Below, in pieces: positions 1-39,112 of a stretch of DNA of 64,000 nucleotides (its first letter is position 1; every line of letters begins with the position of its first letter). The position numbers and the translations under genes are program-made. The notes beneath the pieces were generated by a model. It was not told the DNA's origin. It did not search any database and worked only from the letters and a program-made list of their open reading frames with translations. Source of the DNA: a virus. The DNA lies in the IMG/VR virus record IMGVR_UViG_3300017917_003612, positions 1-64,000 of that record, one strand, 5' to 3'.

Positions 1-67
1 CCAGGGGGTTTAGTCCTGGGGTTTTATAGAATTTATTTGTATTACTTAGGTTCTATAATTCCCCAGG
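1..67 (-). promoter_or_regulatory. Attenuator-like switch: antiterminator helix overlapping a terminator stem that runs off the window edge
   Basis: On the minus strand CCUGGGGAAUUAUAGAA (67-51) pairs with UUCUAUAAAACCCCAGG (31-15) at 15/17 positions. Alternatively CCAGG (19-15) pairs with CCUGG (5-1). The U-tract would lie outside the window. Confidence 0.6.
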
Positions 68-165
68 GTACGATTACTAATATCGCGTGTAATCACCCAA
101 TAGGCTGTTAGCCCACATTCGGGTTGTGATTTAAACGATATATGTAACTGTACTGAAGTCATCAT
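46..165 (-). CDS. Putative leader peptide, 39 aa, MMTSVQLHISFKSQPECGLTAYWVITRDISNRTLGNYRT
   Basis: Translated by hand. ATG lies about 7 nt below a consensus -10; the last six codons cover the 5' arm of the antiterminator. Confidence 0.6.
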   Translation of the reverse strand: MMTSVQLHISFKSQPECGLTAYWVITRDISNRTLGNYRT

Positions 166-172
166 AGCCTCT

Positions 173-201
173 ATTGTATATTTATTTATCTTTCTTGTCA
201 A
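173..201 (-). promoter_or_regulatory. Sigma70-type promoter TTGACA-N17-TACAAT
   Basis: tgtcaa at 196-201 and attgta at 173-178 on +; a TAAATA motif also sits in the spacer. Confidence 0.75.
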
Positions 202-220
202 ACTTTTTTTTGTTGTTAAA

Positions 221-1066
221 TTAGCAAGTTTTGCTAAGATTCCAACTTGATTCGTTTTTGTTTATTATTTTGGTGTAATCGTCAAAATTTGAATCTGAGT
301 AAAACAATTCATATAGTTTATACGTTTTTTTTAAAAAAATCAAGTTAAATCTTTGCTGCCACTGGTGACTATAAATCAGTTTTAACCACCATTGACTTTT
401 TTTTGAATTTTCGTCGCCTAAGTTAAATTGATTCTTTACAAACTTTAATCCAAAATATCTTAAATTTGTAACTTCTGTTAGGTAATTATCTTGATCAAAT
501 CGAATTTGATTTTTGAGTTTTTTGTAAATTTTGTAAATGTTGTTGTTATGATGTGATTCATCAACTACCAACTGATGAAATAAATTTTTTAATTTGATGT
601 TTTCAATATTTCTATAAATTAGATAAAAACTAGTCCAAAGATAACATTCTCCTACGTAATAACGTACTAGTAAATCTGACAAATTAGTATTATCTACTAG
701 AGTAATTGTATTTTTTTCAATTTCTTCTATAGTGTTGTAAGCAACATCTTTATTAAAATTTTGTTTTAAAAATTGTTGTAATAAAAGAGTGTGTTCATTT
801 TCATCCTCTATCATTCTATTCAGATACTTTGCTATTTGGCATCTTTCTTCTTCATTTAAACAGATTTGTTGGTTATAAAAATTTGTTTGAAAGTGGTCAA
901 GAATTTTAGGATATGCTATGGTAGTTTCATACTCACCCAAATATGTGCTATAAATCCAATCAGACAAAAAATCAAAAGAAAAATTCTCATATTTTTGTTG
1001 TAAAGATTGTTCTAATAGATTAGAAAAAATAGGTTCATGAAAATTAAAAATGCAATTATTGGACAT
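221..1066 (-). CDS. Ferritin-like (diiron four-helix bundle) protein
   Basis: Two DExxH motifs (DENEH, DESHH) with an intervening Glu (YYVGE). Confidence 0.6.
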   Translation of the reverse strand: MSNNCIFNFHEPIFSNLLEQSLQQKYENFSFDFLSDWIYSTYLGEYETTIAYPKILDHFQTNFYNQQICLNEEERCQIAKYLNRMIEDENEHTLLLQQFLKQNFNKDVAYNTIEEIEKNTITLVDNTNLSDLLVRYYVGECYLWTSFYLIYRNIENIKLKNLFHQLVVDESHHNNNIYKIYKKLKNQIRFDQDNYLTEVTNLRYFGLKFVKNQFNLGDENSKKSQWWLKLIYSHQWQQRFNLIFLKKTYKLYELFYSDSNFDDYTKIINKNESSWNLSKTC

Positions 1067-1096
1067 AATTACTATTTAAGATTAGAACTTAAAATC

Positions 1097-1121
1097 AAAA
1101 AGAAAGCCCTTTGCAGGGCTT
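1097..1121 (-). terminator. Intrinsic terminator after pqqA
   Basis: AAGCCCT-4nt-AGGGCTT stem followed by a U-rich tract on the minus strand. Confidence 0.75.
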
Positions 1122-1142
1122 ACTTTTCCAAATCGCTTGAAA

Positions 1143-1217
1143 TTAGCGATTAGCAATATACATTGTGATTTCAAAACCAAAACGCATATCTTGAGCTGCC
1201 GGTGTAGTCCATGCCAT
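1143..1217 (-). CDS. pqqA: PQQ precursor peptide PqqA, 24 aa, MAWTTPAAQDMRFGFEITMYIANR
   Basis: Canonical W..P...D.R.GFEITMY...R pattern with E-x3-Y; AAGGAG RBS; own terminator. Below the ORF-track size cutoff. Confidence 0.95.
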   Translation of the reverse strand: MAWTTPAAQDMRFGFEITMYIANR

Positions 1218-1335
1218 GTTATTTCTCCTTGATTAAATTAACATACTGCAACAGTATGTATCTCTATTGTAAGGTAGATTTTGGTACATTTGTATCCTGA
1301 CAGTCATGATTTTACACTACGCAAATTCATTAGTG

Positions 1336-1596
1336 CTAGATAAAATCTAGGGCAGGGTAAAAGTGCCGTTCGGCCCATTCTTGTAATCTATGTTCATGCC
1401 AATAAATCATAAAATGATCTCGAGTTTCGAAATGTTTTTGAAATTCTTCAGTTACAGCCAAGCAACCATTGAGATCCTGTCCACCCATTTCGCCTTTCAT
1501 AAATGCAGTATCGCAGTCCCAATAATACTTTTCTAATTCTTTATAAGTTAGATCTGCTGCGTTTAGTACCACAGATAATAAGAATATTTTGAGCAC
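1336..1596 (-). CDS. Hypothetical exported protein
   Basis: AGGAG RBS, hydrophobic N-terminus. Confidence 0.6.
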   Translation of the reverse strand: MLKIFLLSVVLNAADLTYKELEKYYWDCDTAFMKGEMGGQDLNGCLAVTEEFQKHFETRDHFMIYWHEHRLQEWAERHFYPALDFI

Positions 1597-1617
1597 ACAC
1601 AGCTCCTAAATAATTAT

Positions 1618-1803
1618 TTATTGGTTTATCTGCTTACCCCAATTGAGTCGCAACCAAGCTCTTTCATGAATGTAATGTGCTACAGTCATCCAAATATTAA
1701 TTACAATTGCTCCGCTAATGCCTGTAAATGCTGCGGTTACTAGTGTTGCTACTATACGCCAGCTAATAGCTCTAACTATGGTTCTCTTATGTGTTTCTGT
1801 CAA
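1618..1803 (-). CDS. DUF2061-like small membrane protein
   Basis: ETHKRT..RAISWR and Y.HERAW motifs. Confidence 0.75.
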   Translation of the reverse strand: MTETHKRTIVRAISWRIVATLVTAAFTGISGAIVINIWMTVAHYIHERAWLRLNWGKQINQ

Positions 1804-1817
1804 TTTTTTTCTCCTAT

Positions 1818-1838
1818 AAAAAAGCCCCTTTCGGGGCT
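1818..1838 (-). terminator. Intrinsic terminator after ahpD
   Basis: AGCCCC-GAAA-GGGGCT plus U6. Confidence 0.8.
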
Positions 1839-1841
1839 GGT

Positions 1842-2354
1842 TTAACTATTGAGCACTCGGGCCACAGACGTTATTACGGCTGCGATTCGCCCAATGTCTC
1901 TAAGTTGTTCTACTGTGTATCCCATTTTCTTTAAATTTTCGTAATGTGATTTGATGCAAAAATGGCATTTACCCACAATTGACGCTGCTAGACTATAAGC
2001 TTCAAAACGTTCTTTTGTTGTACCACCATGAGTACTTATGGCATTCATTCTTAGCTGTGCAGGTAATCCTTTGAGATTAGCATCATCTGCCATTTCCACA
2101 TACGGATACCATACATTGTTCATGGCCATTAAACTTGATGCGGTCAGTGCTGCATCACGCTCACGGGCATCTTCCAGATTTGACTGTATAAACGAAACGA
2201 GTTTTCCATTACCTGTTGCCATTGCGGCTGCGAGAGCACATGCATTAGCTTCAGAAATGTCAAGACTGCTGCGATTGATAACACTATCAAGATTAAGTTT
2301 TGTGTCTTTGGCATATTCTGGAAGACCTTCTTTAATTTGTTCTACCCAACTCAT
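1842..2354 (-). CDS. ahpD: Alkylhydroperoxidase AhpD (CMD family)
   Basis: LPEYAKD.KLNL N-terminus, MAMNNVWY, CHFC..SH active site. Confidence 0.9.
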   Translation of the reverse strand: MSWVEQIKEGLPEYAKDTKLNLDSVINRSSLDISEANACALAAAMATGNGKLVSFIQSNLEDARERDAALTASSLMAMNNVWYPYVEMADDANLKGLPAQLRMNAISTHGGTTKERFEAYSLAASIVGKCHFCIKSHYENLKKMGYTVEQLRDIGRIAAVITSVARVLNS

Positions 2355-2490
2355 TCGTGTTTTCCTTTTCCTTTTGTTTTTGATTTTCTATTACTAATAG
2401 TTCTTGTTTCTTTTTGAAAATGGCGTCCCAATTACTAGCAAACTTATCTTGGCTAACACTATAGGGGCGCGGACTTGAACCTTTACTCAC
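2332..2490 (-). CDS. Small phage protein, 52 aa (SKGSSPRP...FASNWDAIF type)
   Basis: GTG start overlaps the stop of the upstream gene; motif recognised from phage hypotheticals. Confidence 0.6.
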   Translation of the reverse strand: MSKGSSPRPYSVSQDKFASNWDAIFKKKQELLVIENQKQKEKENTNELGRTN

Positions 2491-2891
2491 TTTGTTTGAT
2501 CCCCTAGTAGCTTGTAACCTTTGTACGTAGGATGCACACCGTCACTGCTGATGTTGCTTTCGGGTCTTGGAATAACTGTATCACCAAATTCTGCAGCCAC
2601 TTGTTTTACCGCTTCTACTTGTCGTGGCTTGAGTCTCTGGCTAGGCAACAACCAAAACACCCGATTGGCTTGGGCATTGGTACGCAAAGATCTAATGTGT
2701 CCTTCGGTATTGATACCAAGATCATTTGCGCCAAGACTAATGATTAGTGTTTGGGTCGGTTTCAACTTATGTAAATGCTTGTTGTTCCAATCACGACTGT
2801 TGATTCCGCTTTTAGCTATGGCTTGACATTCGGGCCTAACTTGACTGACTCCTACAGCAATACTATCTCCTACAATCAAACATTCAAGCAT
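2487..2891 (-). CDS. SGNH/GDSL hydrolase
   Basis: GDSI, GAND and DGVHP blocks. Confidence 0.85.
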   Translation of the reverse strand: MLECLIVGDSIAVGVSQVRPECQAIAKSGINSRDWNNKHLHKLKPTQTLIISLGANDLGINTEGHIRSLRTNAQANRVFWLLPSQRLKPRQVEAVKQVAAEFGDTVIPRPESNISSDGVHPTYKGYKLLGDQTK

Positions 2892-2904
2892 TTACTTCTC
2901 CTGA

Positions 2905-3450
2905 TTAAAGTGTTTCGCCGCCAATTGGGCGTGAGCATGGGCACAATTCGCCAGTCTGCAATGCGTCAAGGATACGCAATGTCTCGTCTGGATTACGACC
3001 AACGTCTAGATTGTTTACAGTCACATGCTGGATTACATTGTCTGGATCAACAATGAATGTGGCACGAAGTGCAGCACCGGCTGGGCCATAGAAAATACCC
3101 AATTGATCAGCCAAGCTGTTTTCGTCTCTGGCAACATCAGCAAATGACCACGAATTGGTCTTCTTTAGATCCTCGTGTGCGTTACGCCACGCCAGTTTAC
3201 AGAATTCATTGTCGGTGCTACCAATTAGCAATACAGCGTCACGATCTGCGAAATCTTTGTTGAGTTTGTCGTAAGCAACAATTTCAGTTGGGCAAACAAA
3301 TGTAAAGTCTTTTGGATAGTAAACAATTACTTTCCATTTTCCTTCAAAGCTTCGGTCTGTGATTGTTTCAAATGCACCGTCTACGGTCAGTGCGCCGGGT
3401 TTGACACCAGTTACTGCAAAATGTGTGATACGATCTCCAATTGTTTTCAT
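2905..3450 (-). CDS. ahpC: 2-Cys peroxiredoxin AhpC
   Basis: YPKDFTFVCPTE, RATFIVDP, GRN..E.LR and LCP motifs; start moved to MKTIGD behind AGGAG. Confidence 0.95.
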   Translation of the reverse strand: MKTIGDRITHFAVTGVKPGALTVDGAFETITDRSFEGKWKVIVYYPKDFTFVCPTEIVAYDKLNKDFADRDAVLLIGSTDNEFCKLAWRNAHEDLKKTNSWSFADVARDENSLADQLGIFYGPAGAALRATFIVDPDNVIQHVTVNNLDVGRNPDETLRILDALQTGELCPCSRPIGGETL

Positions 3451-3478
3451 CTGATTTTCTCCTAATGTTAAAATGAAA

Positions 3479-3823
3479 TTATCTTTGTGCCCTGCAATTG
3501 GGGCAAACAACTATTAAATTTGTTTCCTCGTTGTTATGAGTATTGTTATCCTTATGATCAACCACTAACGGAATTGATTGTCCTGCGTGTTGGTCGTTCC
3601 GACAAATTTCACATTTTGCGCCACGTTGTTCGATCAAGTAACGTTTTACATAATCTGGTACTTGTCGCCAGGCTGTGGTGGCTTGATTCTGTTTCCATTC
3701 GTTTATCAACAATCTACTTTTGTGCTGTTGTTGACAACTGTTGTTGCAATATTTGTTGGTATAACTGTGTCCTTTTACTGGATTGTTGCGTCCACAATTT
3801 AAACAAGTAAAACAAGAGTTCAT
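3479..3823 (-). CDS. HNH endonuclease with Zn ribbons
   Basis: CEIC...VDHKDNN..NN...NLIVVCPNC. Confidence 0.8.
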   Translation of the reverse strand: MNSCFTCLNCGRNNPVKGHSYTNKYCNNSCQQQHKSRLLINEWKQNQATTAWRQVPDYVKRYLIEQRGAKCEICRNDQHAGQSIPLVVDHKDNNTHNNEETNLIVVCPNCRAQR

Positions 3824-3937
3824 AATCTAGTAGAGTAAGTTGCAAAGCACTTTATAATATTTACTGCTCTATGTTATCCATTATATAGGAGTATAAATAG
3901 TTTTGCAACACTTTTGATAAAACTAATTAAATACTGT

Positions 3938-4117
3938 ATGTGGTTATTAATTATTATGATGTTTAGTACACTTCCTCCAGGTACAAATGACACTCGAGGT
4001 TCCATTTCTGTACGAGTCGGTACCAAAGAAGAATGTTATCAAATGAAAGAACGCATAGAAAAAATGCGTTTTGACAATTATCGAATGAGCGCATCCTGTG
4101 TGTTCAAAGGCACCTGA
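3938..4117 (+). CDS. Small membrane/exported two-Cys protein
   Basis: Hydrophobic N-terminus, EEC...SCV; TAAATA 4 nt upstream of the ATG. Confidence 0.6.
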   Translation: MWLLIIMMFSTLPPGTNDTRGSISVRVGTKEECYQMKERIEKMRFDNYRMSASCVFKGT

Positions 4118-4187
4118 CAAAAAGAATCTAGTCATATCAACTGCCCAATAAATATTTGTGCTTACGGCTTTCAATCATGGGTGGACA

Positions 4188-5861
4188 ATGAATCGATATG
4201 ACGAACTTGAAATACTAATTAAAAAATTTACTAGACAAATACCAGATACCGAAGAATACGACGCTAGACTACAAGAAGAATTAGAAATTATCGCAAAATT
4301 AGGTTTTGCCAAGCACTTTCTTCGTGTTAGAGAAATTCTAGATTTAACTCAAGACATACCACACATCACCAGAGGTTCAGCAGGATCAAGCTTGATATGC
4401 TATCTCATGGGCATATCAGATGTGGATCCTATTCTAGAACGCATACCATTATCACGATTTATGAATCCCAAGCGTGATGACTTACCGGATATCGACTTGG
4501 ACTTTCCGCACTGGCAACAAGAAACTGTGATGAACAGGATCTTTAAACGTTGGCCCGGACAAAGTGCTAGAGTAAGCAATTATGTGATGTACAAAGAAAA
4601 GTCGGCTGTACGCGAAGCTGCCAAACGGTATGGTGCCAAGGGCAGATTAAAACGCAATTTTAAATTGGCAGATGTGGTACCGGCCGAGTATGTGGGCGAA
4701 GCCGAACGACTAGCAGACAAACTGTTGGGCAAGAAACGTTGTATAAGCAAACACTGCGGCGGCATACTGATCTTTGATCGTGCAGTGCCCAAAAGCTTGA
4801 TCAATGGCGAGAATCAAATATTGTTAGACAAATACGAGATCGAAGACCTTGAACATTTTAAAATTGACATTCTTGCCAATCGTGGACTAAGTCAACTATG
4901 GGAAATAGAACAGCGTGATTTGCTAGATTATCCTGAAACAGATGAAGCAACTAGTGCTCTACTCAGCAGAGGCGATGTGTTAGGTGTTACACAGGCAGAG
5001 AGTCCGGCTATGAAACGACTGTTTAGAGCCATACGCCCTCAAAATCGTGCTGACTGTGTGTTAGGTACAGCACTTATTCGACCAGTGGCCACACAAGGTC
5101 GTCGTAGAGCAAGTGCCTTTCAAGATTGGACCAAAGATAACTTGTCTGAAACTATTGTGTTTGAAGATGATGCTATAGAACTGATATCAGAAATACTAGG
5201 ATGTGATCAATATGAAGCAGACATGTGGCGTAGGGCATTTGCTAAGAAGAACGAAGAGAAGATGTTTGAGTTCATGCAAAAGGTTGGAGATCATCCTCGT
5301 CGTGATGATGTCCTATTGGCCTTACGTGAACTAAGTCACTTTGGTCTATGTCGTGCCCATGCTATCAATCTTGGTAGATTGATTTGGGCATTAGCATATC
5401 AAAAGGCACACAACCCAGAAGCGTTTTGGCGTGCTGCACTAAAGCACTGTCAAGGATCATATGCTGGATGGGTATATTGGCAAGAAGCCAAACTAGCTGG
5501 AGCAGTACCTGCAGCCGGCGAAGGGGGTGAAGTGGCAGACTTGTTACAAGAAGGTCGTTGGCGTAGTGGTAGATTCATTCCGGTGTGCCAAGAAATTCGT
5601 AAACCCGGACAAGTGGAATTTTGTGGTCTAGTTGCCAACTATCGTGTGTTCAAGTCAGGACCCAAAGAGTACATTACCTTTGCCACACTAGGCACTGGCA
5701 ATGGCAGATATCTTGATGTTATATTACCACATGCTACCAGTTTTCATGAACAACCAATCTTGTGGGGAACGGGCAAGTTGGGGTATAAAAATAATTCAGA
5801 ATATGTTACAGTATATCGTAGCAAGAAGATGAAACTAACTGATATAGCACACATAACATGA
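4188..5861 (+). CDS. dnaE: C-family DNA polymerase (DnaE-like), shortened, no PHP domain
   Basis: RGSAGSS, PDIDLDF, SKHCGG, KIDIL, Q.ES..M and CRAHA motifs; C-terminal OB-like segment. Confidence 0.88.
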   Translation: MNRYDELEILIKKFTRQIPDTEEYDARLQEELEIIAKLGFAKHFLRVREILDLTQDIPHITRGSAGSSLICYLMGISDVDPILERIPLSRFMNPKRDDLPDIDLDFPHWQQETVMNRIFKRWPGQSARVSNYVMYKEKSAVREAAKRYGAKGRLKRNFKLADVVPAEYVGEAERLADKLLGKKRCISKHCGGILIFDRAVPKSLINGENQILLDKYEIEDLEHFKIDILANRGLSQLWEIEQRDLLDYPETDEATSALLSRGDVLGVTQAESPAMKRLFRAIRPQNRADCVLGTALIRPVATQGRRRASAFQDWTKDNLSETIVFEDDAIELISEILGCDQYEADMWRRAFAKKNEEKMFEFMQKVGDHPRRDDVLLALRELSHFGLCRAHAINLGRLIWALAYQKAHNPEAFWRAALKHCQGSYAGWVYWQEAKLAGAVPAAGEGGEVADLLQEGRWRSGRFIPVCQEIRKPGQVEFCGLVANYRVFKSGPKEYITFATLGTGNGRYLDVILPHATSFHEQPILWGTGKLGYKNNSEYVTVYRSKKMKLTDIAHIT

Positions 5862-15183: not shown

Positions 15184-15534
15184 TTAGATAGGCACTCTTG
15201 GATTAAAAGTAACGTTTGGATCTGATCTCATTCTATTTTCCCAGTAATCAAACTTTTCATGATTGACAAAATCAGGGGGTGTTTCTGATTCATACCCAAC
15301 AATAATAAGTATTTTACCACCATGAGCAGTAGTTATAGTTTCTTCAATGGGTGTTACTTTGAGTGTATTGTTGTCAATAAACGGTTGTAGATAGTTTTCT
15401 ATTTCAATGAAATCTGATTTCAACTGTTCTAATTCCACAGCCGGCAGGGTATGCAACCCCCATTCAAACACGGTAACCATATGATGCTGACCGTCTATTT
15501 TTAGAACAGATTTAAGTTGTTTAAATTTAGCCAT
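15184..15534 (-). CDS. Hypothetical protein
   Basis: Clean ORF; TAAATA upstream. Confidence 0.55.
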   Translation of the reverse strand: MAKFKQLKSVLKIDGQHHMVTVFEWGLHTLPAVELEQLKSDFIEIENYLQPFIDNNTLKVTPIEETITTAHGGKILIIVGYESETPPDFVNHEKFDYWENRMRSDPNVTFNPRVPI

Positions 15535-15564
15535 AAAACTCTCAATTTTAAATATTTATTTAAC

Positions 15565-15748
15565 TTCCAGCCACTTCTGTTACCGAGCAGGCTGGGTCCA
15601 TCTCTGAGTCTTAGTTTAGCTTAGGCAGCTAAACGAACCTCAAACAGCTCATCATTGGCTGCATTTAGAGTTTTGCTTCTTTTACGTTGATCGCCTAACG
15701 TGCTGTCCACTCGCCTACTCTTGACCCTGTCGAAACCATGTCTGGCCC
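15565..15748 (-). ncRNA. ssrA: tmRNA coding piece (permuted gene); tag frame 15662-15621 = AANDELFEVRLAA
   Basis: 5' GGGCCAG-ACAUGGUUUCGAC; UAAAU-GCA resume context; ANDE...LAA tag. The 3' end is approximate. Confidence 0.9.
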
Positions 15749-15760
15749 ATCATAAAGAGA

Positions 15761-15955
15761 TTATTTTTGATCTTTACTGTTACTAGATGGTTGTTGTTTC
15801 AAATGCTCTACAGATACGCACCTAGCAGTCATATTGGGCCTATTCTGTATCAATATACTGGCAGCTTCCCAACATTCCTCAAATCTGTCAAAGGTTTTCC
15901 ACTCACTTTCGTGCAAAACACCTGATATAACAACAGTTACAAAAAGTACATACAA
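15761..15955 (-). CDS. Two-Cys small membrane protein inside the tmRNA intervening segment
   Basis: AAGGAG directly after the tmRNA CCA, TTG start 8 nt later; EEC..A...RCV motif shared with other ORFs in the window. Confidence 0.65.
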   Translation of the reverse strand: MYVLFVTVVISGVLHESEWKTFDRFEECWEAASILIQNRPNMTARCVSVEHLKQQPSSNSKDQK

Positions 15956-15970
15956 ACCATAATCTCCTTA

Positions 15971-16035
15971 TGGTGGACCAGGCGGGAGTCGAACCCGCGT
16001 CCAGAACCCTTTTTGGGTTGCTTCATACAGCAATT
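15971..16035 (-). ncRNA. ssrA: tmRNA acceptor piece (T-arm, 3' acceptor strand, encoded CCA)
   Basis: GGAC-GCGGG-UUCGACU-CCCGC-CUGGUCC-ACCA pairs with GGGCCAG, giving G3-U70. The 5' end is approximate. Confidence 0.9.
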
Positions 16036-16053
16036 ATTGCTTCATACAGCAAT
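16018..16053. repeat. Perfect 17-bp tandem duplication TTGCTTCATACAGCAAT
   Basis: Copies at 16018-16034 and 16037-16053. Confidence 0.95.
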
Positions 16054-16055
16054 AT

Positions 16056-17645
16056 TTACTCAACTACAAATAAATCATTATTGACAATTTGAGCTTTGTT
16101 TTTATTTATAATTATATTTTTTGATTTGTCTTTAGTGGGCAGCAATGATTCTTTAATATCTTTATTTGCATAACTAGTAACAAGTGCCAGTTCTTTTACA
16201 ATATCTAGTTGATCCAACCACTCTTTCATAAAAGTTTTTGGAATGCAGAAGTAAAATCTTCGTCTAATTTTTTTCTGCTGCTTGTACCAAGATGATTCAG
16301 AAACATATTTTATGTAACTAAACACCAATTCCACAGGCACGTCTTTGCCAGCATTTTCGTACCAATAATTTTTGAATGTATCGTGTAGGTTATCTGCTAT
16401 GTTTTGAGCGGGCACCGTCCTGCAACATCCTGGGCTGCTGTTTCGTGTAATATCAAATTCACAGAAGCCAAAATAATCAGTGCTTCCGTCCGATGGATTT
16501 GAAGTAAAGTAAAAACTTGGTCTAGGATTGGGATTTAATTCATAAACAAAACTACATTTTTTGATACTGTTATGTCTAAAATAAAATCTTGTTTCTTTGC
16601 GTTGTTGAATAATATGATAGTTATCTATGTTATCAAAAATGCCAATATCAACTTTAGATTTTACCTCGTTTATATAATCAACTATCTGTTGAAGTTTTGC
16701 ATCAACTTTAACAACATCTTTGTTTGATAAAACTTTTAAGTGAAATTTACCGTTGTATTGCAAATCTTCTCTCAATGATGCTACAGTTGTGTTTGTAGAA
16801 AAAATTTTAACCAATCTTGTTTTAAAATGTTCTCGAGATTCTCCTGCAACACTCAATAAAAAACTTTCAGCAGGCACGCTTCCTAGAAATGTTTTCTTAA
16901 AAATTTCTTGAAAAGGAATATCTGGATTTTTTATTTGTAAAACGGAATCAACATTTTCATCAATACCGTTATGTTTGATGATGTAATTGTTTTCGTCGCC
17001 ACCACGGATCATACTTAAAACTATAAGTCCTTGGGCAACATTATCAAATTTTAATGGATCTACATCAAATACAGACACTATTGTAAAATATTTTTTTAGG
17101 AATTTTTTAAACTGCAAATAAAATTTGGAGTCGTTTGTAATTAAACTTTTAGGAATCACATAATGTATACCACCCTGGTAATCATTTGTTATCATTATAT
17201 CAGCAGTTTTGATTATAAAAAACACTGCTTCTTCTCTTATGCCAGTGACTCCATATTTGTGAGCTAATTTTTTGACATAATTTTTATGTGTGGTCAAACT
17301 GTACGCCGGACTACGAAATGGAACATTTCCAATGAAGCTGACTTTCTTGGTATCAAAATTCAGTTCAGTGTTGATGTCGTAAAAATTTTTATGATAAAGT
17401 GAAAGATTAGGAAATCTTTCAACTCCTTTTTGAAACCACTCTTCATCTAGTTCAACTCCAACAATGTTGGCATTGGGATACTGTTCAATCATTGGACCAA
17501 TAAATCCACATCCACCAAAACTGGGCTCTACTACAATATCAGAGTCAACTGACAGTTTATCTAAAATCTCTTTAACCAAGTCCTCGGGAGTAAAAAATTG
17601 TCCCAACTGATACTTTTTGGATTGTATGTTTTTTTCTTCTAGCAT
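16056..17645 (-). CDS. N6-adenine DNA methyltransferase (gamma-type order)
   Basis: GQFFTP, EPSFGGCGF (motif I), GVELD, GNVPF (variant NPPY/F motif IV). Confidence 0.85.
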   Translation of the reverse strand: MLEEKNIQSKKYQLGQFFTPEDLVKEILDKLSVDSDIVVEPSFGGCGFIGPMIEQYPNANIVGVELDEEWFQKGVERFPNLSLYHKNFYDINTELNFDTKKVSFIGNVPFRSPAYSLTTHKNYVKKLAHKYGVTGIREEAVFFIIKTADIMITNDYQGGIHYVIPKSLITNDSKFYLQFKKFLKKYFTIVSVFDVDPLKFDNVAQGLIVLSMIRGGDENNYIIKHNGIDENVDSVLQIKNPDIPFQEIFKKTFLGSVPAESFLLSVAGESREHFKTRLVKIFSTNTTVASLREDLQYNGKFHLKVLSNKDVVKVDAKLQQIVDYINEVKSKVDIGIFDNIDNYHIIQQRKETRFYFRHNSIKKCSFVYELNPNPRPSFYFTSNPSDGSTDYFGFCEFDITRNSSPGCCRTVPAQNIADNLHDTFKNYWYENAGKDVPVELVFSYIKYVSESSWYKQQKKIRRRFYFCIPKTFMKEWLDQLDIVKELALVTSYANKDIKESLLPTKDKSKNIIINKNKAQIVNNDLFVVE

Positions 17646-38506: not shown

Positions 38507-39112
38507 TCAAAATTTGTCAACCACTGTCCACTCATTTCTTATTACACATCCCATTATTTCCCATTGCATTAGAGTGTTGTTTTTTGGATTTACATCCGAT
38601 TCTAAAAAATATCTACATATGGTTCCTTTGTGTTCAAACGGTGCAGGTTCTGCAGGATGAGGCTTTAGTTCACTTACTTGAAAAGTATCATTCTTTTTGA
38701 GTCCTTTGCGCAATTGCGGCGTTTGAAAATCGTTACAATACAGGGTCTGGCTAGACTGCACTGCTATGCCTTGTATTTTTTCTAAAATTTTAGTGCGTCC
38801 AACTTGCATGGCCTGACTGCAGATTTGATCAGTACTGTCCGTAATAAACCCTTGACTTTCACCTCTGGCGTCATACCATTTGTTATTGATGTTGGCTTTA
38901 AACAAAATTGTACAGATCTGCTGATTGTTTTGTGTTTTGACAAATTTTTGATAATCAGCTATTTCGCGAATTTCCGTTTTAGTCTGATTGGTTAAAACAG
39001 ATTCTTGATAACATTCTGCTACAGCCAAACCAGGAAATCCAAAAATTAGTGCGAATTTAAACGCTGCTCTCGTTCTAGCAAGTATTTTTGCTCTGAATCT
39101 GTGATTGGACAT
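38507..39112 (-). CDS. Exported Cys-containing protein
   Basis: Signal-like LAVA-EC. Confidence 0.6.
   Translation of the reverse strand: MSNHRFRAKILARTRAAFKFALIFGFPGLAVAECYQESVLTNQTKTEIREIADYQKFVKTQNNQQICTILFKANINNKWYDARGESQGFITDSTDQICSQAMQVGRTKILEKIQGIAVQSSQTLYCNDFQTPQLRKGLKKNDTFQVSELKPHPAEPAPFEHKGTICRYFLESDVNPKNNTLMQWEIMGCVIRNEWTVVDKF

Follow-up and report, generated by a model that had tools for sequence, protein, structure and literature searches.

A probable transcription attenuator in a large phage with a leader reading frame that encodes all twenty amino acids

We describe here an element found at positions 1-201, on the minus strand, of a viral DNA stretch of 64,000 nucleotides (nt), positions 1 to 64,000 of the IMG/VR record IMGVR_UViG_3300017917_003612; this whole stretch will be called the window. 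The element is probably a ribosome-mediated attenuator: a leader-peptide open reading frame (ORF) would report the decoding of every amino-acid class and would in this way gate a gene for a basic protein of 55 amino acids (aa) and the transfer RNA (tRNA) genes which follow it. Onward transcription would probably take place only when ribosomes decode slowly. The case is built on the comparison of related sequences, which share the parts of the element, the position of its stop codon, its competing helices and a strong bias in the amino-acid composition of the ORF.

The virus record is a contig in a single piece of 78,548 bp with 38.8% G+C, and the window starts at its first base. The element is cut at this point, therefore its downstream part has been taken from relatives. 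The parts present in the window are the following:

196-201, minus strand: -35 hexamer TTGACA, with an A-rich tract before it; kept in 15 close copies
173-178, minus strand: -10 hexamer TACAAT, separated from the -35 by a 17-nt spacer and placed 7 nt before the ATG
46-165, minus strand: leader ORF, with an ATGATG start (first ATG at 165-163), 39 sense codons and a TAA stop at 48-46
68-153, minus strand: hairpin 1, long and irregular, wholly within the ORF (codons 5-33), with strong conservation at the nucleotide level
50-67, minus strand: 5' arm of the antiterminator (hairpin 2), formed by CCUGGGG (67-61) and the inner stem UUAUAGAA (58-51), which correspond to codons 34-39
15-31, minus strand: 3' arm of the antiterminator, formed by UUCUAUAA (31-24) and CCCCAGG (21-15)
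1-5, minus strand: CCUGG, the first 5 nt of the terminator 3' arm; the remaining GG and the U-tract lie past the contig end

An earlier note on this DNA, made from the letters alone and called here the original prediction, had proposed a promoter TTGACA-N17-TACAAT. It is found at 201-196 / 178-173 and matches the consensus in 11 of 12 positions. The ORF is also as the note described it: it encodes all 20 amino acids, the twentieth type being reached at residue 31, and uses 31 distinct codons, TTA, CTA, ATA and AGA among them. Its last six codons (34-39, positions 67..50) do form the 5' arm of a helix which sequesters one arm of a GC-rich stem, and the stop codon (48..46) is found 2 nt past this arm. 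Hairpin 2 spans positions 67..15; its CCCCAGG segment (21..15) can alternatively pair with CCUGG (5..1) and, together with the A-tract at 25-22, doubles as the 5' arm of the terminator. The RNA from position 167 to 1 has a minimum free energy of -50.3 kcal/mol (z = -5.3), and none of 200 shuffled sequences folds as well. Hairpin 1 is possibly a pause site, a factor-binding site or an anti-antiterminator.

The family of related elements

Upstream of the element there is a gene for a 281-aa rubrerythrin-like protein, which has homologues at 44-96% identity. Their loci were fetched by an alignment-based scan of viral contigs. The element lies directly downstream of the homologue in six of seven loci and is conserved far better than that protein. 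Further copies were found by means of conserved DNA motifs, the downstream 55-aa gene and the terminator motif alone. The total is 15 close copies, all of them distinct, and 99 unique members of the family; the latter were collected by the terminator motif alone, with no reference to the ORF. We applied an ORF-first extraction, since one anchored on the promoter misses half of the family. All 15 close copies keep the promoter, the ATG, an ORF of 38-43 codons, both helices and the U-tract. The relatives carry one copy each, at a fixed syntenic position, and no second copy of positions 1-230 is present in the 78.5-kb contig: a repeat element, such as a miniature inverted-repeat transposable element, is thus ruled out.

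Other searches gave few matches. With blastn, positions 1-1300 of the window had no match in cultured phages and a single one in plasmids, the pqqA gene discussed below. Viral contigs gave no match to a 33-nt hairpin motif or to exact 8-mer patterns taken from the peptide sequence of the 281-aa neighbour; the 55-aa protein and three divergent elements had none in the cultured-phage collection. The leader peptide and the 55-aa protein have no match in Pfam or PHROG. Rfam has no family which matches the copy in the window (E up to 10) or the full-length copies (E up to 1). A T-box riboswitch was rejected: RF00230 gives no match, and the antiterminator has a 2x2 internal loop instead of the 7-nt bulge. 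The nearest cultured relative, as judged by NrdA, is the Stenotrophomonas phage DLP_6, which has an array of 37 tRNAs; the leader-plus-terminator device was not found in it.

Amino-acid composition of the leader ORF

The presence of all 20 amino acids in one short ORF is unusual, but it is not decisive in a single sequence. Only 0.02% of the stop-free 31-aa segments of the contig hold all 20; the proportion is 0.3% for 39-aa segments taken from its long ORFs and about 1% for nucleotide shuffles free of stops. The composition becomes significant only across relatives. The number of amino-acid types is 19 or 20 in every close copy, even in L025 with its almost unrelated peptide. In the whole family all 20 are found in 77 of 98 ORFs and 19 in 14 more, so that 91 of 98 have at least 19. 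The original prediction had suggested a comparison with controls, which comes out in its favour: among ORFs of 30-52 codons all 20 are found in 71 of 92 real cases (77%) and in 1 of 94 decoys (1%). A cluster of one amino acid, of the kind expected for regulatory codons, is absent: the close copies have this diversity instead.

The sequences are related, and the diversity was also evaluated by groups. The 93 unique peptides form 13 clusters at 50% identity, with a median of 20 types in five of them and of at least 19 in nine (binomial p ~1e-6 against a generous background of 1.5%). This level of identity was chosen; single-linkage at 40% or below chains nearly all peptides into one cluster. In a second test only the residues which differ from a reference were redrawn: the diversity observed in five diverged lineages has p = 0.03-0.16 in each of them, with a combined p of ~1e-3 by the method of Fisher. 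Individual residues illustrate the same trend, since lost ones are restored at other places: L024 and L015 have lost the lone Cys of position 17 and have one instead at positions 33 and 8, respectively. As part of the attenuator reading as a whole, which we hold to be probable, selection would keep the ORF stocked with every amino acid.

Conservation of the ORF and type of selection

An ORF of at least 30 codons which ends 25-34 nt before CCCCAGG is found in 98 of the 99 elements, compared with 8% at decoy anchors in the same loci; the conservation which the original prediction depended on is thus present. The orthologous ORF is found in 14 close copies, and lengths across the family are about 38-50 codons. 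The stop codon is TAA in 84 of the 98 ORFs, TAG in 13 and TGA in one. This TGA replaces TAA in place in L024, and L025 has an earlier TAG in another register. The two indels found inside the ORF are both of 3 nt; those in the loop after the stop are mostly of 1-2 nt. Sequence conservation falls off directly after TAAGT, that is to say past the stop codon, and in the close copies the other two reading frames have 2-5 stops. Translatability of the ORF is maintained across the family.

A different picture is obtained for the peptide itself. In nine genomes the variable columns of the leader ORF are 9, 9 and 12 of 40 by codon position, with proportions of synonymous (pS) and non-synonymous (pN) differences of 0.16 and 0.085, a ratio which is uninterpretable because silent sites are constrained. 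The 55-aa gene of the same genomes has a normal periodicity (27, 17 and 36 of 55 columns; pS 0.41, pN 0.14). In the wide family the entropy of the leader by codon position is 1.30, 1.24 and 1.30, and conserved residues use one fixed codon: AAT in 59 of 59 cases, GAT in 65 of 65 and ACA in 54 of 54. The peptide has a recurring core because the RNA is conserved. The leader peptide shows no protein-like selection, the dominant constraint being on the RNA.

We have also noted that related phages have a tRNA with a CUA anticodon, of the amber suppressor type (L005:358-433, L007:252-327 and KU682439.2 113763-113834). Given the 13 of 98 leaders which end in TAG, suppression of this codon could shift the position where the ribosome stops in them.

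The terminator and antiterminator helices

The original prediction saw only one side of a GC-rich stem running off the sequence and proposed to look for its other side and for a U-tract. Both are found in the relatives, where CCUGGGG(UUUU) completes the stem and the terminator reads (AAAA)CCCCAGG / CCUGGGG(UUUU), with its U-tract. In full, in all relatives, it consists of AAAACCCCAGG, a 9-nt loop and then CCUGGGGUUUUUGUUUU, with about -17 kcal/mol. The CCCCAGG segment is common to the antiterminator and the terminator, so that the two helices are mutually exclusive, and it is invariant in 15 of 15 close copies. In each of the close copies the two structures have nearly the same energy: -23 to -26 kcal/mol for the antiterminator and -20 to -26 for the terminator.

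In 87 of 98 elements the CCCCAGG of the nascent RNA, when the 3' arm of the terminator has not yet been made, pairs with bases which precede the stop codon by 8-25 nt. The antiterminator is rebuilt with different pairs in L018, L020 and L025, for example UGGGGUCU/AGACCCCA in L025, and one pair of the inner stem shows an A-U to G-C compensation in three sequences. In consensus folds the upstream partners for segment 2 are 5' UUCAG or GCCUAYUGGG, which would weakly suggest a four-segment scheme like that of trp.

The break of the contig falls exactly inside the terminator hairpin (window 1-19). On the plus strand the same hairpin and its A-tract (window 1-19) also score as a terminator: it is probably bidirectional.

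Start of the leader ORF

According to the original prediction the transcript starts essentially on the ATG of the leader. This is plausible for the window, where the -10 box is found 7 nt before the ATG, but most family members have a sequence like a Shine-Dalgarno (SD) before it instead. A gap of 6-7 nt separates the end of the -10 box from the ATG in the window and in 15 further elements. The gap is 9-10 nt in another 22, owing to the change of the first ATG of ATGATG to ATT, which gives 38 elements with a distance of 6-10 nt. The other 60 of the 98 have no promoter-proximal -10 box, and most of them have the SD-like GAGAAA or GGAAA before the ATG. Leaderless initiation would therefore be a variant of the clade of the window. 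On transcripts which come in from upstream, initiation at the second ATG could use a weak SD (GAGG).

This phage could plausibly translate leaderless transcripts. Near-consensus sigma-70 promoters with an ATG at 5-6 nt from the -10 box occur at three other places, 47333, 38520 and 14826 (minus strand), where the ORFs which begin have 75 aa, 39 aa (lipoprotein/entericidin-like, MKTLLVFLLFTLTGC) and 135 aa (with a weak match to the SWIM zinc finger). Among the 12 consensus promoters of the gene strand, 4 are followed by an ATG at 5-7 nt from the -10 box when that of the leader is counted (p = 0.004). Leaderless messenger RNAs (mRNAs) may be a habit of the phage.

Genes downstream of the element

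In the relatives the first gene past the terminator codes for the basic protein of 55 aa, which is conserved. It is in the same orientation, as expected from the original prediction, and has an AAGGA Shine-Dalgarno and an ATG start about 10 nt past the U-tract. This gene depends on read-through, because there is no room for a promoter of its own after the U-tract. It is followed by tRNA genes: co-oriented tRNAs are found within 3 kb in 66 of the 67 elements with enough flanking sequence, with a median of 11 per element and the first one at a median distance of 442 nt. Examples are L003 (16 tRNAs, the first at 540 nt downstream), L006 (14, from 400 nt) and L008 (20, from 1,650 nt).

The contig of the window has no tRNA gene in its 78.5 kb, which includes window positions 1-5000, and the 55-aa gene of the relatives is also absent from the whole of it: this fits with both being found beyond its edge. 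A two-piece transfer-messenger RNA (tmRNA) is present.

Some details of these regions are of interest. In L005 (6408-6502) and L006 (11397-11491) the first tRNA past the 55-aa gene is a long call of 95 nt, tRNA-Ile(UAU) with the anticodon at 31; it could contain an intron, be called wrongly or represent a tRNA-like RNA. In L008 a 375-aa radical-SAM-like protein, below the Pfam threshold, is coded between the 55-aa gene and the tRNA array (L008:5519-6646) and shares 10 nt with the first tRNA. DLP_6 has, in its tRNA region (L143, KU682439.2 91000-114500), at least eight small annotated coding sequences which end only 7-10 nt before a tRNA gene; this arrangement of ORFs abutting tRNAs differs from the leader device.

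Proposed mechanism

The attenuator would operate as follows. A strong sigma-70-type promoter would start the transcript at the AUG or within 1-3 nt of it, and the 39-codon ORF would be translated while RNA polymerase moves on. A quick ribosome which arrives at the end of the ORF would cover the 5' arm of the antiterminator; the terminator could then form and transcription would stop. If the ribosome were delayed anywhere earlier, the arm would remain free, the antiterminator would form first and the polymerase would read on, as found in the relatives, into the 55-aa gene and then into the first genes of a large tRNA array. Every amino acid is represented in the leader, and the loss of any class of charged tRNA would slow the ribosome: the element would be a general sensor of decoding capacity. 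Its output of tRNAs would relieve its input, which would establish a feedback loop over the tRNA region of the phage. We infer the polarity of the switch, from stalling to read-through, from the geometry of the helices, as well as any link with tRNA cleavage. A more specific version, which we regard as rather doubtful, is an inducible switch for counter-defence and supply: the removal of any tRNA class by host anticodon nucleases, or by tRNA decay induced by infection, would lead to the production of replacement tRNAs and of a small basic effector, with a terminated leader RNA which possibly acts in trans on the host or on phage translation.

Several observations weigh against such an attenuator. 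Hairpin 1 is conserved in nucleotide sequence, loops included, far beyond what alternative pairing needs: a second RNA function for the interior of the ORF seems likely, and it could even be the main one. Covariation is sparse, as the three CCUGGGG/CCCCAGG segments are nearly invariant and a single pair changes on both sides. The default fold of the untranslated full-length leader is ambiguous, with the antiterminator in 53 of 98 elements, the terminator in 38 and other structures in 7. The composition tests are not fully independent, given that the family is homologous, with an effect whose direction and size are still clear. In the window itself the terminator 3' arm beyond its first 5 nt, the U-tract and the downstream genes are all outside the contig. 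There are also internal promoters after the first tRNA of the array, so that control of the whole array is not implied and the strict dependents on read-through are the 55-aa gene and the first tRNA. The original prediction that the element could switch on phage tRNA genes is supported by the presence of the co-oriented arrays, but the direct targets would be reduced to these two.

Alternative explanations

The original prediction also offered a role for the RNA alone, based on its long irregular hairpin. The hairpin does fold and the dominant constraint is on the RNA, but the ORF and its composition are maintained. Such an RNA would work as a leader of the riboswitch type or bind a protein, or else be a small RNA which stands alone; hairpin 1 would be its sensor or functional domain, and the ORF would be incidental. 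Besides the constraint at the nucleotide level, the lack of codon periodicity, the fixed codons at conserved residues and the strong fold agree with it, and the layout of promoter, about 180 nt and terminator is that of a small-RNA gene. We think it quite unlikely, however, because an untranslated RNA needs neither an ORF at the same place in nearly all elements and in few decoys, nor a full set of amino acids in which lost residues are regained elsewhere; stop codons which interchange in place, indels which stay in frame and a conservation which ends directly after the stop also speak against it, as does the lack of an Rfam family. The element could also be an ordinary small-protein gene, with the 39-aa peptide as its product, a leaky terminator and hairpins which only stabilise the mRNA. 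Its ORF, start and stop are conserved, and the phage has other small promoter-proximal ORFs, such as the lipoprotein-like one of 39 aa at 38520. Nevertheless the equal entropy at the three codon positions does not correspond to purifying selection on a protein, and the peptide of L025 is near-unrelated and yet keeps its length, its composition and the position of its stop with respect to the hairpin. The peptide matches nothing in Pfam or PHROG, the stop codon is always found inside the arm which competes with the terminator, and the next gene has no promoter of its own: such a gene is very unlikely.

A combination of functions would account for the extra conservation of hairpin 1, loops included: the attenuator could release a terminated leader RNA of about 180 nt, or its peptide, which also acts in trans. 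There is a precedent in the trans-acting attenuator RNAs described in PMC6614838 and PMC7298713. We have identified no target or partner, and the extra conservation could instead be due to a double constraint, of pairing and of codon content, or to a transcription pause signal; we consider this combination unlikely. An attenuator which reads the decoding of all amino acids is the explanation we prefer.

Comparison with known systems

In E. coli and Salmonella the leaders trpL, hisL, pheL, leuL and thrL and those of ilv are attenuators with runs of codons for the amino acid which is sensed. The phage element resembles them in that a short ORF follows the promoter and precedes the first gene, one segment is common to the antiterminator and the intrinsic terminator, and the 5' arm of the antiterminator contains or adjoins the end of the ORF; the position of the ribosome would thus select the fold, and fast translation would here also lead to termination. 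It differs by the lack of a run of a single amino acid, since all 20 are kept, and by a longer ORF (38-50 codons). It is encoded by a phage and has a small basic protein gene and tRNAs downstream, not biosynthetic enzymes. In the clade of the window there would be no 5' untranslated region, the interior of the ORF is a long hairpin with conserved nucleotides, and there is no sequence homology with those leaders.

The nearest functional analogue is the upstream ORF (uORF) of whiB7 (wblC) in mycobacteria and other actinobacteria, a general sensor of translation stress. According to PMC10274678, stalling in this uORF leads to antitermination; it responds to a shortage of many amino acids and to the knock-down of tRNAs or synthetases, and what it senses depends on its composition. 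The analogy concerns function alone: the whiB7 uORF is enriched in alanine and controls a cellular transcription factor, whereas the phage element has a balance of all 20 amino acids (with one Ala in the peptide of the window), is viral and precedes tRNA genes; the two are not homologous. In Deinococcus deserti leaderless leader peptides have been predicted, with the transcription start at the AUG and a proposed control by attenuation (PMC4007540). They are bacterial, have about 10 residues, are rich in the cognate amino acid and are found upstream of genes for tRNA synthetases and biosynthesis, unlike the phage leader. In the trp attenuator of Sinorhizobium meliloti the terminated rnTrpL is released as a discrete small RNA and the peptide is called peTrpL; its ORF has 14 codons and senses Trp, which is not the case in the phage leader (PMC6614838 and PMC7298713).

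We found no account in the literature of such a control for phage tRNA genes. The reasons for which large phages keep tRNA genes by the dozen, and the regulation of these genes, are open questions. If the proposed mechanism is true, transcription of the tRNA region would be coupled by feedback to decoding by the ribosome, and this would be the first attenuator whose leader peptide is under selection to cover every amino acid; in effect it would report global decoding capacity in a compact natural form. An element of about 230 bp with a sigma-70 promoter could be moved to laboratory strains, perhaps as a sensor of translation stress or of defence systems which target tRNAs. With so clean a comparative signal, an ORF which lacks protein-like selection and nonetheless maintains its composition would also be useful in separating ORFs translated for regulation from protein genes and from non-coding RNAs.

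The contig and the neighbouring genes

The ends of the contig do not overlap, and its far end cuts the NrdA gene, of which only the C-terminal third is present there. The assembly is incomplete for these two reasons, which also rule out a circular join of the contig. NrdA has at most about 60% identity to T4-like and jumbo phages; the element probably belongs to a large T4-like or jumbo phage.

The tmRNA mentioned above is permuted and is found at positions 15530-16063 of the window, on the minus strand, as called by ARAGORN; its tag is AANDELFEVRLAA. A similar permuted tmRNA-like sequence was found by eye in DLP_6 (L142:1040-1262), directly upstream of its tRNA array, with a tag which ends in ANDDSFAPMAIAA.

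On the other side of the leader, the 281-aa protein of the rubrerythrin/ferritin-like type is coded at window positions 221-1066 (minus strand), downstream of a gene for a 24-aa peptide of the PqqA family (window 1143-1217, minus strand; Pfam E = 8e-10), which has 83% nucleotide identity to pqqA of Acinetobacter. There is no pqqB-E nearby. The counterparts of this pair in L008 are found at L008:3797-3871 and 3950-4759; in L015 and L024 pqqA is the gene which immediately precedes the attenuator. Four related phages share the PqqA peptide at 100% identity, although the adjoining protein is only about 50% identical. The two genes may form a pair of a peptide and a diiron enzyme. They adjoin genes for a protein of the AhpD/CMD family, a GDSL-like hydrolase and an AhpC/peroxiredoxin (window 1842-3510, minus strand), and all of them together are a redox-themed accessory block.

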